Source: Escherichia coli (GTDB taxonomy: Bacteria; Pseudomonadota; Gammaproteobacteria; Enterobacterales; Enterobacteriaceae). Taken from it: a DNA stretch of 64,000 bases. The number at the start of each line of letters is the position of its first letter. Position 1 is the first letter of the stretch. Where the stretch lies: NCBI RefSeq assembly GCF_041248615.1, contig NZ_CP158426.1. The stretch is one strand, 5' to 3'. Positions 46,801 to 52,800 of this stretch are shown here, piece after piece. The position numbers are program-made.

Positions 46801-49800
46801 GAAGTTCCTCGACTTCCTCGCGAAGCCAGAAAATGCTGCCGAGTGGCACCAGAAAACCGGTTATCTGCCAATCACCAAAGCGGCGTATGACCTGACCCGT
46901 GAGCAGGGCTTTTACGAGAAAAACCCAGGGGCGGATATCGCGACACGTCAGATGCTGAACAAACCGTCGTTACCGTTCACCAAAGGACTACGTCTGGGCA
47001 ACATGCCGCAGATCAGAGCGATTGTGGATGAAGAGCTTGAGAGCGTGTGGACCGGTAAGAAGACGCCACAGCAGGCGCTGGATACCGCCGTTGAGCGTGG
47101 GAATCAGTTACTACGCCGCTTTGAGAAATCGACGAAGTCTTAACCAGTGTAATGTCGGATACGTTTCGCCTATCTGAGCTAACATCGCGTGTAGGCCGAT
47201 GTGATTGACATCTTCCTCCTTACGGCATCAACGTTCCAGACTGAGATGTACCCAGTTCCCTGGTGGAGAAGTCAGTCATGAATATTAATCGTATTGGTTT
47301 CGATCTTGCCGAAAAATGTTTTTCAAATCCACGGCGTTGATCACAATGAATAGTGGTACGGAGAAAAACGCTGAGCCCTCCCCACATGATGACGTTTTTC
47401 TCCGGGCTTTCTCCCTGCCTCATCAGCATCGAAGTCTGTGGCTCTTCCCATTCTGGGCACGGGAACTCATTCCGTATGGGGCCTACCGTGCGCATTATTC
47501 CGTAGAAACTTGTCAAATCTTATCTCAAAGGTAACAAAAACGACGCTAATAATGCAGCTGCCATCTGTGAGGCCGTCAGCAGGCCCGGCATGCGATTTGT
47601 TGTTTTCATATCGGAATCCCAGCAGACGTTACAGGAAGAATACCGGGTCCGGGCCAGAATCATCCGCGAGCGAACGGCGTTGCGTAATGAAATCCGGGGG
47701 CTGTTGAGTGAATTTGGTCTGCTGCTGCCTGTGGGGATAAGGCACGTGCGTAAAATCCAGCAGGGAATACTGCCCAGGGGCAGTGGAATGACCCTTCATC
47801 CGTTTGTTGTGCGAACTGTCAGAGTAAAATGAACTCATATCGTCTCATGACCACCGTCTTCATGAGGCTGCAAGGGATGATATCCGTATTAAACAGCTGA
47901 TGGAGCTAAAAGGAGTTGGTCCCACAACAGCCTGTGCGCTGGTTGCCTGTATCGGTAATGCACATGATTTTAAAAAGGGACGGCAACTGGCAGCCTGGCT
48001 GGGCTGACGCTATCACAATACAGCAGCGGCTGAATGTCGAAGCTGGGCAGGATAACAAAAGCCGGTGATTCGTATCTGCGAATGCTTCTGGTTCAGGGGG
48101 CTCGTTCAGTACTGATTGGTGCTGAGAAAAGGACTGACTCATTCAGTCGTTGGGTCTGTTCACTGGTTGAACGCAGAGAATACTGACGCGCTGTTGTGGC
48201 CATCGCCGCCAGAAAGGTAAGGCTGTGCTGGGCATCATGTCATTACGGTGATGATTTCAGGCTGTATTCAGCCAGCTAAAGCACGCAGCAACCGTATGAC
48301 TATCTGATCTGCAACTCGTTGATGATAAAGTGTTAGACCCTGTGAGGTATATCTGATTATTGTACAGGATATACGTATCCGCTTAACGAACAAGAGCCTC
48401 ACGCGCGTCTTTCATCTGGGCCGAATAGATGAGATTCATCATGGTTGTTTATAGTACCGTCGTCTCTCCCCTTTATTTTTACAGAAAAGCAAACAGAAAC
48501 CATAAATACCGGCGTTGACATGGCGGGGAAGCCGGCAACGGCTATCCCTACCGTAATCATAATATTTCTGTCATTTCTGCTCCCTACAATGACGTTAGTT
48601 TTACTTCTGGGCGATAACAACGAAAGGAGAGTATGACATGCACAACTCCAAAATCCGGCTGGCTATACTGGTTGGCTGCATGGCTCTGAGCGCCAACCTG
48701 TGGGCCAAAGCGCAGCCGGTGCAGGCAACGCTGGCCGGGCATGCAATTCTGCCGGCAAAATCCGCTGTTTCAACACCGAAGGATGCGCCGGGCGATTTGC
48801 AACAGAGCGGCAAATACACCAGCGGCAAACGCGTCACCGAGCTGGGCAGCGTGGCGGGCAAATCCGCAGAACGCCTGACAGGACTCAGCCTGCCGATCAA
48901 TGGTCAGCCGTTGCAGGGCCACTCAGGTATCAAACACATGCCCGACGGTACCTATTGGGTGCTGACTGACAATGGCTTCGGCAGCAAAGCCAACTCCCCG
49001 GACGCCATGCTGTACCTCAACCAATACAAGATAGATTTCAAAGACGGCTCGGTAGTACCGCTGAAGACGCTGTTCCTGCATGATCCGGATAAAAAGGTGC
49101 CGTTCCACATCATCAACGAGAGCACCGAACTACGCTATCTGACCGGCAGCGATTTTGATCCGGAAAGCTTCCAGTTTTCCGACGATGCCTTATGGATCGG
49201 TGATGAGTTCGGTCCTTACCTGATCAAGACCGACCTGAACGGCAAGGTGCTGGCGGTGTTCGACACAGAAGTGGACGGTAAGGTGGTTAAATCGCCGGAC
49301 AACCCGACGCTGACTCTACCTAGCGCTCCGGACGGTAAGCTGAACTTCCAGGTGGCGCGTTCCAAAGGCTTTGAAGGCATGGCCATCTCGCCGGACGGCA
49401 GTAAGCTGTATCCGCTGCTGGAAGGGGCATTGTGGGACGGTGAGCAGTTCGAGAACGTTGACGGAAAACGCTACCTGCGTGTGCTGGAGTTCGATGCCAA
49501 ACAGCAGGCCTGGACTGGTCGCAGCTGGCAGTACGTGCTGGAAGACAACCAGAACGCCATCGGCGACTTCAATATGATAGATGATACCCACGGACTGGTG
49601 ATCGAGCGTGATAACGGCGAAGGCACGGCGGATAAAGCCTGCGTCGCCGGCGCGCCGACCAACAACTGCTTCAGTCAAGTAGCCAGGTTCAAACGGGTGT
49701 ATAAAATTGCTTTCTCGGACACTAACGTCGGAAAACCTGTCGAAAAACTGGGCTATATTGACCTGATGAAGATTCAGGATCCGAACAAGCTGGCACGCAA

Positions 49801-52800
49801 GCCGCTGAACGACGGTGTGCTGACCTTCCCGTTCTTCACCATTGAGAACGTGGATGTGGTTGACACTAACCACATCATCGTAGGCAACGATAATAACTTC
49901 CCGTTTTCCTCCAGCCGCTGGCCTAATATGGCGGATGACAACGAGTTTATTCTACTGGATGTGAAGGATTTTCTGAAGTAGGGGGAAGAGCATCTTACGA
50001 TACTCCTCGCTAATTTAAAAACGAACGGTGCTGAGCACCGTTTTTAATCACCTCGCCAGAACCTACCAGAATATGATGTTGGTTTATTATCACTGATTCA
50101 TGGGGAGCACCCAGCGCTTCGGCGGTTTTTTATGTCTTTAAAGCAGTAGCGGTAGGGTCGCGCTGGCTGTTTTCTGGCTCACCTCGCTGTACTGGTCATC
50201 CAGCGCAATCAGCGATGTGGTGAGTAGCTCTACCAACAGCATCACTCCCACTTTGGCAGTCAGCGCGCCGGCACTCAAGGGTCCTTCCGGTTTGGCCGCG
50301 ACCAGTTGAATATCACTCAGCGAAGCTAACGGACTGCGCGGTGTATTACTCAGCGCCAGTACACGCACACCTTGCTTACGCGCTAGTTTTACGACATGCA
50401 GCAGATCGCGCGTGGATCCAGAACTGGAAATCGCCACCACGAACGTGTTTTTACTAAGTGTTGTGGCGTTCATGGCAGCACGATGCATATCGCTGAACAA
50501 TTGTGCGGGTTTCCCCAGACGCAGGAGTTTATAATGTAAATACTCCCCCAGAATGGCACTGGCTGCTACGCCATAAATCTGCACTGACTGAGCCTGATGC
50601 AGTGCAAGCGCGGCTGCTTCCAGCAAGGTTCTGTCGAGTAATTTTGCTGTGTCCTGTATTGCTTGCACGGATTCATTGACCACATTGTCAATCTCATCAC
50701 CGCCGTGCTCTACAAACTGTACTTGTCGGAGATCGAGTGCCAGCGCCATTTTGAATTCGTTATAGCCCTTACACCCAAGCGTTCGGCACAGACGTGTGAC
50801 GCTAGCCTCGCTGGTGCCGCTTTCACGCGCAAGTTCGGTAATCGTCAGGTAGACAACTTTTGCCGGATCGCTAAGTACAAACTCTCCCAGCTTCTGTTGT
50901 GTTCGGCTATATCCATCAACGCTCTGGCGCAATCTCAGCAGCAGGTTTTCATTTTCTGACATGTAAAATCCTTAATGCGTTTATCTGTTGATAGTGTGAC
51001 GGAAAGGAGGGGATTGATGCCAGACATTTTAAAAAAGTATGATCGACTTCTTAGATTTTGATGGTGATTTTTATTTATAAGAATAATTATAGTAAAAATT
51101 TTCATCAAAAATCGAGGAGATGATAAAATGATGCAAATGTTTAGCGGCGCTTCATCGGGGGGATGGTTTGAAAAAGCGCAGCGGTTCGGAAAATCCTTCA
51201 TGCTGCCGATTGCGGTATTGCCCGCAGCAGGGCTGTTATTAGGGATTGGTGGCGCGTTGTCAAATCCAAACACGTTGACGGCTTATCCGTTTTTAGATGC
51301 CGACTGGTTGCAGGCAATATTCACAATCATGACCAGCGCAGGTTCTATTGTGTTTGCCAACCTGTCGGTACTCTTTGCAGTCGGCGTCGCCGTGGGGCTG
51401 GCGAAATCGGATAAAGGCACTGCCGGGCTTGCGTCATTGCTGGCGTTTCTGGTGATGAATGCCACCATCAACGCCTTATTAACGCTCAACGGAACGCTGG
51501 CGCACAAGAACCCCGCTTCAGTTGGCCAGGGGATGACGCTTGGTATTCAGACACTGGAAACTGGTGTGTTTGGTGGGGTGGTGATTGGTCTCGTCACCTG
51601 CACTTTACATAGCCGTTTCAATAAAGTCTCACTACCTCAGTTTCTCGGTTTTTTTAGTGGTTCTCGTTTTGTACCCATTATCAGCTCCCTTGCCGCGATA
51701 GTAGTGGGTGCGGTTATGACGGTGGTGTGGCCGCATTTCCAGAAACTCATTTTTGGACTGGGCGACCTGGTGGATGCGACGGGCTATCTGGGGACGCTGT
51801 TGTACGGCTTCATCCTGCGTATGCTCGGTCCACTGGGTTTACACCATATCTTTTATTTGCCGTTCTGGACGACGGCGCTGGGCGGCAGTGAAATCGTCAA
51901 CGGCCAGTTGGTTGAAGGTACGCAGCGGATTTTCTTTGCCCAACTTGCCGATCCGAATACGCAGCAGTTCTACGCGGGTACCGCTCGCTTTATGTCCGGG
52001 CGCTTTATCACCATGATGTTTGGCCTGCTTGGCGCATGTCTGGCAATGTACCATACTGCAAAGCCGGAGAATAGAAAGGTTGTCGCCGGACTACTTTTGT
52101 CGGCAGCCCTGACCTCTTTCCTGACGGGAATCACTGAGCCTGTTGAGTTCTCCTTCCTGTTTGTCGCGCCCGTATTATACGTAATTCACGCCTTCTTCGA
52201 TGGTCTGGCGTTTATGGTCGCCCATATTTTACATATCACTATTGGGCAAACCTTTTCGGGCGGGCTTATCGATTTCCTTCTCTTCGGCGTGTTGCAGGGG
52301 GAAGCTAAAACAAACTGGATGTATGTCCCCATAGTGGGAATACCGTGGTTCTTCCTTTACTACTTTACTTTCCGCTATTTGATTAACCGCTTTGGCTGGC
52401 TGACGCCGGGGCGTGAGAACGTAACCCAGGTTGAATCCGGCCAGCCTCAGAGTGAACGCGCAGCGGCAGTCATTGCCGGGCTGGGAGGCAAAGAGAATCT
52501 GGAAGAGGTGGACTGTTGCGCCACGCGCCTGCGCGTGACGGTTAAAGAGAGCAGTAAGGTAGATGAAGCTGCGCTGAAAGTGGCCGGAGCGCGTGGCGTG
52601 ATTATTCGCGGCAACGGCGTTCAGGTGATTTATGGCCCTCATGTCACCATCATTAAAAACGAAGTCGAAGAGATTTTATCGTAATGAAAACTGTACTGGA
52701 TTCCCTGAAAGGTAAATTAATCGTCTCCTGTCAGGCTCTGGAAAATGAGCCTCTACATAGTCCGTTTATTATGTCACGTATGGCGCTGGCGGCAGCACAA

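Follow-up and report, generated by a model that had tools for sequence, protein, structure and literature searches.

What does an exported protein of the "phytase-like" family contribute to a genomic island of Escherichia coli, and does it act together with the orphan ugpB gene that lies upstream of it? The question arises from a 64,000-nucleotide stretch of contig NZ_CP158426.1 (assembly GCF_041248615.1), hereafter the window, in which an earlier note had described, at 48400-49990, a 447-residue protein with a signal peptide and repeated Gly/Asp-rich motifs, had tentatively called it phytase-like, and had raised the possibility of a phosphate-scavenging cargo pair with ugpB. The reading that we favour, with moderate confidence, is that of a PhoB-induced, Sec-exported, metal-dependent propeller phosphoesterase that would scavenge phosphate from organophosphates, encoded beside an extra Pho-controlled UgpB. 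The gene joins a known family that lacks biochemical characterisation; what is new is a conserved Pho box, recurrent pairings with phosphatase genes, and domain fusions.

The phytase-like protein and its putative Pho-box promoter

The open reading frame (ORF) of the phytase-like protein lies inside the reported interval, and its product has the length, the signal peptide and the Gly/Asp-rich repeats that had been described (Table 1). The family call was right at the Pfam level. The search returned a confident, single, end-to-end match to PF13449, "Phytase-like" or "esterase-like activity of phytase" (E=5.4e-61, profile 1-284/284, residues 90-421, 207.4 bits against a cut-off of 27.6), and the NCBI pipeline gives the gene the same product name. 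PF13449 was the only family reported by the Pfam scan, which found no match to PF02333 (3-phytase) even at E<=0.01, none to PF05787 (PhoX) and no GDPD domain in the protein itself; no NCBIfam model matched, and PDB searches, run both from the sequence alone and from a profile (to E<=10), gave no match, the chains of the Bacillus β-propeller phytase (BPP) included. The gene is real, intact and already named correctly by standard annotation, and its architecture holds nothing unexpected.

The N-terminus, MHNSKIRLAILVGCMALSANLWA/KAQ, has the basic n-region, the hydrophobic core and the Ala-X-Ala-type end of a classical Sec signal peptide, and the twin-arginine motif is missing from it, as read in the window ORF. 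The sequence LVGC, ending at Cys14, was considered as a lipoprotein signal and ruled out: the E. coli copies and some from Serratia have the cysteine, which those of Yersinia, Entomohabitans, Providencia and most others lack. Because Cys14 is not conserved and all orthologues have equivalent signal peptides of the Ala-X-Ala type, the protein is taken as soluble and exported, and not as a lipoprotein.

The AlphaFold (AF2) model contains five four-stranded blades (pLDDT 76.9, pTM 0.81), and the five Gly/Asp-rich repeats fall on the first strands of these predicted blades: QGHSGIK..DG..TDNGFG (93-115), DPESFQ..DD..GDEFGP (172-193), GFEGMA..DG..LLEG (242-263), IGDFNM..DD..ERDNGEG (306-329) and TIENVD..D..GNDNNFP (398-422). 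In a set of 64 representatives, whose identity to the query is just 34-57%, conservation of at least 90% is seen for 22 polar residues, namely D111, N112, D122, D149, R166, D172, D174, E176, E190, E246 and E262 in the first half and E323, R324, D325, K352, D375, E403, D418, N419, N420, R427 and E436 in the second; fused and long members of the family keep them equally well (11-12/12 per position). The central metal site of propeller enzymes is usually built from the first strands of the blades, where several of these 22 residues are located, and the abundance of carboxylates with few Arg or Lys would be as expected for a Ca2+-type phosphoesterase centre. Two cysteines, C335 and C344, are also conserved and may form a disulfide. 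Orthologues about 65-93% identical occur across the Enterobacterales, Burkholderiales, Rhizobiales and other orders; all are single-domain proteins with signal peptides, about 445-460 residues long, and the identity is still about 70% between the Enterobacterales and the Comamonadaceae, Cupriavidus, Azospirillum and Microvirga.

A Pho box is defined here as 18 bp made of two 7-bp CTGTCAT repeats and a 4-bp A/T spacer, which replaces the -35 element and ends about 10 bp before the -10. The search upstream of the gene was positive: the site TCATAAT-ATTT-CTGTCAT stands at the right distance from a -10 hexamer, is conserved in several genera and belongs to a pattern enriched across 80 orthologous loci. 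Its upstream half-site is weak (3/7 matches). The sigma-70 scan found at this promoter neither a -35 match nor a full -35/-10 pair, and an activator-dependent promoter is expected to show none. The phoB promoter of E. coli has the same layout, with a perfect proximal heptamer, an A/T spacer and 10 bp to the -10.

The nucleotide homology to the chromosomal Serratia and Yersinia orthologues sets in at the box, from 48558/9 on, and runs up to the stop codon or stops just short of it (S. bockelmannii, 90% identity in DNA and 93% in protein), and the Pho-box block is kept upstream of these orthologues while the sequence farther upstream is all different. The site upstream of the Entomohabitans orthologue, AGGTCATATTTCTGTCAT, has 12/14 matches, and that of Providencia, CTGTCTT-N4-CCATCAC-N4-TTGTCAT, is formed of three heptamers in 11-bp phase followed by TATGAT. 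The best match was then scored in a 270-nt upstream window at the 80 orthologous loci, from Gamma-, Beta- and Alphaproteobacteria, against 622 control upstream regions from the same loci. Scores of at least 11/14 were reached at 32 of the 80 loci and in 7 of the 622 controls (odds ratio 59, p=9e-27), and scores of at least 10/14 at 55 and 54, respectively. Counted from codon 30, the matches concentrate 145-200 nt upstream, even where the G+C content is 65-75%, and the pattern spans lineages whose upstream regions are otherwise unalignable. From this conserved arrangement, PhoB-type control of the phytase-like gene appears probable. Downstream, the hairpin AACGGTGC-TGA-GCACCGTT is likely a bidirectional terminator between the phytase-like gene and a convergent rpiR-family gene. 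Since a PhoB-type promoter of its own, the gene and the hairpin terminator follow one another, the gene would be monocistronic.

Phosphoesterase partners and the function of the family

The profile search of 1.84 billion representatives collected 2,394 clusters at 50% identity, 489 of them at E<=1e-30, and long multidomain proteins are frequent among them. The fusion partners seen in 17 multidomain relatives were GDPD (11), PhoD (2), a PhoA-type domain (1), RTX Ca2+ repeats (6) and DUF4114 (1), so that PF13449 is fused to GDPD, PhoD or PhoA in 14 of the 17. In six relatives (P0229, P0226, P0245, P0203, P0204 and P0191) the PF13449 match is split, with the GDPD domain standing just before the part that matches profile positions ~117-284; this suggests either a GDPD domain set within the propeller or an incomplete propeller, and not two domains simply fused in tandem.

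The stand-alone gene has partners as well. In six loci, from Comamonadaceae and Microvirga, the orthologue is directly preceded, in the same orientation, by the gene of a 686-residue PF00245 (PhoA-type) alkaline phosphatase. In Escherichia itself a second allele, 93% identical, is convergent to the gene of a PhoX-family phosphatase with a twin-arginine translocation (Tat) signal, and this phoX/phytase-like pair is conserved as a unit on 7 plasmids of E. coli and E. albertii, with two further plasmids carrying phoX alone (95%). The plasmid allele of the phytase-like gene keeps the Pho box (CCATAATATTTCTGTCAT, 10 bp, then TATTAT), and the region upstream of the plasmid phoX holds the Pho-box-like TCATTATATTTCTGTAAC. 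E. coli is not known to have a chromosomal phoX. These three independent associations, the PF00245 neighbours, the plasmid pairing with PhoX and the domain fusions, all point to phosphate-ester scavenging.

Two further observations concern these neighbourhoods. The large ORFs upstream of orthologues were considered as TonB receptors, a reading that was rejected when they proved to encode PBP1C, an FtsX permease, the PhoA-type phosphatase and others. In Providencia (L010-L013) the orthologue lies directly downstream of ybbA/ybbP-like ABC/FtsX genes together with a divergent GDSL lipase gene (TesA-like lysophospholipase), which may hint at a link to phospholipid breakdown or be a coincidence.

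The mechanism that we propose starts from phosphate scarcity, when PhoB~P would switch the phytase-like gene on and its product would accumulate, either periplasmic or released from the cell. Most likely it would act as a divalent-metal-dependent phosphoesterase, probably with Ca2+, on organophosphates; phosphodiesters or monoesters that originate from the head groups of phospholipids are the most plausible substrates. Phosphate set free in this way would enter through Pst and/or glycerol-3-phosphate through Ugp, and the orphan ugpB, expressed from its own Pho-box promoter, would raise the binding-protein capacity available to the resident UgpAEC transporter. Both genes, as co-regulated neighbours, would form an accessory phosphate-scavenging patch of the island and not one transcription unit. 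The ORF, its family, export signal and fold class, the motif with its conservation, the mobility, the gene pairings and the domain fusions are established; PhoB control, catalytic activity, the metal, the substrate and the cooperation with UgpB are what we infer in this scheme. The phosphate-scavenging interpretation of the earlier note is supported, with caveats, by the Pho box, by the PhoX and PhoA-type pairings and by the GDPD, PhoD and PhoA fusions, its regulatory part being predicted from the promoter sequence. At the level of the wider family, it also agrees with reports in which PF13449-annotated genes are among the most induced of the Nodularia P-limitation stimulon (PMC9846622) and "phytase-like" proteins are abundant in P-stressed Synechococcus (PMC11020310).

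Several points weigh against this proposal. The p-values of the Pho-box comparison overstate independence, because the 80 loci share ancestry and a naive procedure was used to call the control ORFs, and the 10/14 score of the E. coli box, taken alone, is reached by 8.7% of the control upstream windows; the weight of this box comes from its geometry, conservation and enrichment, not from its score alone. All-against-all clustering of the ORFs at the 80 loci yielded no universal neighbour, the neighbourhoods being otherwise unconserved, and at none of the 80 loci, outside E. coli, does ugpB stand next to the orthologue. The predicted phytase of Pseudomonas putida BIRD-1, which may or may not be a PF13449 protein, was reported not to be regulated by PhoBR (Lidbury et al., PMC5082522). 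Finally, fusion to diesterases and monoesterases alike would also fit a non-catalytic binding module.

This last possibility deserves to be set out in full. A Pho-regulated but non-catalytic exported propeller could bind Ca2+ and/or an organophosphate (or mineral phosphate) as an accessory or substrate-capture module, and serve as a binding domain in the fused proteins. Fusion to three mechanistically different phosphoesterase families (GDPD, PhoD and PhoA-type) and the position of the stand-alone gene beside PhoA-type or PhoX enzymes would both be accommodated by it, as would the outcome of our literature searches, in which no catalytic activity and no paper reporting the assay of a PF13449 protein were found. 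We nevertheless hold it to be unlikely: an identity of about 70% across bacterial classes and a dense invariant constellation of Asp, Glu, Arg and Lys are more typical of an enzyme, and most orthologues have no phosphoesterase neighbour at all.

Other identities for the propeller fare less well. A true phytase, that is, a myo-inositol hexakisphosphate hydrolase equivalent to Bacillus BPP, would be useful in the grain-fed poultry gut that is home to many carrier strains; it is made distinctly improbable by the lack of a PF02333 match mentioned above, by the five blades of the model against six in BPP, by the rank of 1poo in the fold comparison, only 22nd after many unrelated propellers, and by fusion partners that indicate glycerophosphodiester and general phosphoester chemistry, not inositol phosphates. 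The least probable of the three is an unrelated propeller function (lactonase, YjiK-like, glutaminyl-cyclase-like or host-interaction virulence cargo) with a coincidental resemblance to a Pho box. Its fold matches share only 11-13% identity over about half of the protein and none of their Pfam families matches; the Pho-box enrichment across the 80 loci is far above the controls; and the fusion partners and recurrent neighbours are all phosphoesterases. Membership in the Bacillus BPP, PhoX, YjiK/SdiA-regulated and glutaminyl cyclase families was rejected for want of any hidden Markov model match, the likeness of fold being generic or partial.

We return to the exported, Pho-regulated phosphoesterase. 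Could stand-alone PF13449 proteins be an unrecognised and widespread class of such metal-dependent propeller enzymes, to be placed beside PhoA, PhoD, PhoX, PafA and Psip1? We advance this only tentatively. In that case a minimal cassette would have been captured at least twice by Escherichia mobile elements, each time beside a Pho-type gene (the orphan ugpB on a selC-type island, phoX on IncF-type plasmids), and would give some strains of extraintestinal pathogenic E. coli (ExPEC), avian pathogenic E. coli (APEC) and E. albertii an organophosphate-scavenging module.

The orphan ugpB cassette, its mobility and the island

The ugpB gene of the window is intact, and its full-length product scores 932.6 bits (cut-off 411) with NF008211, which marks it as a UgpB equivalog. 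Its cassette extends from 157 bp upstream of the ATG to 55 bp past the stop codon, before ugpA; there the homology to the K-12 operon ends and debris of an insertion sequence (IS) of the IS110 family comes next, ugpA, ugpE, ugpC and ugpQ all being absent beside it. Its allele was never the resident copy in 5,424 E. coli genomes, 5,223 of which fall in the 90-95% band; it was found in about 200 genomes, never on plasmids, and the whole block in 203 genomes. At the left junction of the cassette (45355-45656, minus strand) lie a truncated ORF of a PemK/MazF-family toxin and a hypothetical ORF of 35 codons. NZ_CP054388.1 (strain 1517k) has up to 4 separate matches to the 1.5-kb ugpB segment, for a median of 1 per genome, so that some strains may carry the orphan cassette, or the island, more than once.

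The proposal that the phytase-like gene lies beside ugpB and forms a cargo pair with it holds in part. An intact orphan ugpB is indeed upstream, and each gene has its own Pho-box promoter; the distance is 1,495 bp, however, occupied by a frameshifted IS110 pseudogene, and the genes are two independent cassettes joined by IS activity, apparently in a single event whose product now moves with the island. An operon with ugpB is rejected because of this 1.5-kb gap, the dead IS110 and the separate promoters; no plus-strand terminator was predicted between the two genes, so that some read-through from the ugpB promoter may occur. The two are supported as co-regulated neighbours of the same presumed regulon; that they are a selected functional pair is possible.

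We give an even chance to the simpler explanation that the two genes are adjacent by an accident of IS-mediated assembly, do not cooperate, and that the orphan ugpB is perhaps redundant with the resident copy. The dead IS110 between them and the separate promoters fit such an accident, as do the numbers of genomes with the ugpB allele (about 200) and with the whole block (203), which indicate a single event; the phytase-like gene, moreover, travels on plasmids without ugpB, and none of the 80 other orthologue loci has it as a neighbour. On the other hand, both are minimal promoter-plus-gene cassettes of one regulon, and the second mobile copy is paired with PhoX, so that co-location with phosphate-scavenging genes recurs. 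The family is also recurrently fused to GDPD, whose product, glycerol-3-phosphate, is the ligand of UgpB, and the idea of a pair therefore gains some biochemical logic.

The mobility of the phytase-like gene is seen on the plasmids, where the unit that contains it corresponds to 47722-50083 of the window, the hairpin at 50024-50042 included; on other replicons, the cassette is also met by itself, flanked by two IS1A copies. A non-coding stretch of about 275 bp after the IS110 pseudogene (within 47279-48556) co-travels with the gene on plasmids, and the pseudogene is labelled "RNA-guided transposase" in newer annotation. Of 5,426 complete E. coli genomes, 228 have the phytase-like gene, in 225 chromosomal and 7 plasmid copies.

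Table 1. Features of the phytase-like gene, of the orphan ugpB cassette and of the plasmid phoX gene; coordinates are those of the window unless another replicon is named.
Feature	Position	Strand	Remarks
Orphan ugpB cassette	45666..47198	+	1,533 bp; 93.3% blastn identity to the K-12 ugp locus
ugpB Pho-box array	45687..45715	+	CTGTCAT (45687), CTAACAC (45698), CTGTCTA (45709); 11-bp phase; aligns with the K-12 ugp promoter
ugpB, periplasmic sn-glycerol-3-phosphate/glycerophosphodiester binding protein	45827..47143	+	438 aa, intact, 97.3% identical to K-12 UgpB
Decayed IS110-family transposase pseudogene	47279..48280	+	Frameshifts, internal stop; from the RefSeq annotation of an identical locus; only broken ORFs here
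Pho-box-like site	48557..48574	+	TCATAATATTTCTGTCAT; 10/14 consensus positions; promoter-proximal heptamer perfect
Putative -10 hexamer	48585..48590	+	TACAAT; 10 bp downstream of the Pho box
Shine-Dalgarno sequence	48624-48629	+	AAGGAG; 8 nt before the ATG; read from the sequence
Signal peptide of the phytase-like protein	48638-48706	+	Residues ~1-23
Phytase-like (PF13449) ORF	48638..49981	+	447 aa, ATG start, uninterrupted, in the ORF list
GC-rich hairpin	50024..50042	.	A-run before, T-run after
PhoX-family alkaline phosphatase	L084:8712-10691 (pRM14721, NZ_CP027106.1); also H62-H67		659 aa; Tat signal SRRRLLQTGAVAGAAA, including SRRRLL

E. coli chromosomes, a large share of them from APEC and ExPEC isolates, match the window region at 100% identity. 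In an identical locus with RefSeq annotation (L001) the order is the cluster of eilA, IatC and the type III translocon, then yicS, nlpA, yicL, setC and the island. The left part of the island contains cbtA/yeeU and antirestriction genes, IS3 elements, a mazF fragment, ugpB, the IS110 pseudogene and the phytase-like gene; the right part contains the convergent rpiR-family regulator, a phosphotransferase system (PTS) IIBC gene, a nanE-like epimerase gene, a lysozyme inhibitor, a YadA-like adhesin and a transketolase/PTS cluster. One of the exact matches to the region is an APEC strain of serotype O2:K1:H5, which is also the serotype of BEN2908, the strain of AGI-3. Together with the position beside setC, this suggests that the island may be the selC-associated AGI-3 or a close relative of it. 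The tRNA scan did not find selC inside the 64-kb window, and the label "selC island" rests therefore on the setC flank and on the literature, that on sequence type 95 (ST95) being consistent with a selC-associated island beside setC (PMC9781279).

Further genes of the window accompany this island. Directly to the left of yicS-nlpA-yicL-setC, at 16188-34331 and in low-GC DNA (0.36-0.39), lies the type III secretion translocon cluster, with the 3,709-residue inverse autotransporter adhesin IatC, the HilA-like regulator EilA, an IpaD/SipD-type tip protein, a YopB/SseC-type translocon protein and an LcrH-type chaperone. The Hfq-binding small RNA isrC (43575-43697, minus strand, 150 bits), which alone reaches the Rfam gathering score within 36000-64000, adjoins the IS3/antirestriction/cbtA-yeeU module. 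Immediately to the right of the phytase-like gene, the genes at 50138-53373 are a small amino-sugar uptake module: the regulator of the rpiR/MurR family and, divergent from it, a PTS IIBC of the glucose/maltose class (TIGR02002 at 587 bits, slightly under the cut-off) and a nanE-like N-acetylmannosamine-6-phosphate 2-epimerase. AGI-3 reportedly carries carbohydrate genes, with which this module may correspond.

Significance and comparison with known systems

If our reading is true, a very large family (about 2,400 clusters at 50% identity), whose members are routinely mislabelled "phytase" or "glycerophosphodiesterase", gains a physiological setting, the phosphate-starvation regulon. An island frequent in ST95 and APEC lineages, with PTS, nanE-like and transketolase clusters as metabolic cargo, would also gain phosphate scavenging, and Pho-regulon activity is known to affect ExPEC virulence. 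The E. coli copy would be an ideal experimental entry, single-domain, in a tractable host and adjoining well-understood Pho genes, and the function of the family becomes directly testable there through the conservation of the Pho box, the repeated pairings and the domain fusions.

One close known case is orf34 of the Shigella SRL island, also called "phytase-like", for which the best match of the same name was 99.78% identical (PMC6980539). It shares with the gene of the window its product name, its status as island cargo and its flanking IS elements, a likeness drawn from annotation and not from sequence; its neighbour is IS66, whereas that of the phytase-like gene is ugpB/IS110 on one side and rpiR-PTS-nanE on the other. 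In Nodularia, the "atypical alkaline phosphatase" nsp7010 and nsp6490, a GDPD with a phytase domain, are both PF13449-annotated and strongly induced by P limitation (PMC9846622). They share the family annotation and the GDPD association, but they are distant relatives from another phylum, often multidomain, and the induction measured there is only deduced for the E. coli gene.

Bacillus β-propeller phytase has six blades. Like the phytase-like protein, this enzyme (PF02333, 1poo) is an exported all-β propeller with many conserved acidic residues suited to Ca2+, and the two share a nickname; its fold (1poo/1h6l) is not matched by the five blades of our model. The C-terminal domain of YjiK (3qqz) and the bacterial glutaminyl cyclases (3mbr, 3nok) align over ~212-225 of the 447 residues at the low identity given above, with no family-level sequence match and no phosphate link. 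The comparison with the Ugp system and GlpQ/UgpQ of E. coli rests on the orphan ugpB, a true equivalog with the ugp Pho-box promoter, and on GDPD, the commonest fusion partner of PF13449, while ugpAECQ is absent from the window locus and the phytase-like protein has no GDPD domain of its own.

PhoX and Psip1 are exported, Pho-regulated propeller alkaline phosphatases with an Fe/Ca cofactor, and some Psip1 orthologues have an extra phytase-like domain (PMC11098088). Psip1 was considered as a characterised relative of the phytase-like protein and rejected, as it belongs to a different family (PMC11098088). PhoX differs from the phytase-like protein in having no sequence relationship to it, in its Tat instead of Sec signal, and in blade number and fold neighbours. 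PhoX and Psip1 offer the best functional analogy for the phytase-like protein, and PhoX is the physical neighbour of its 93% identical plasmid allele.

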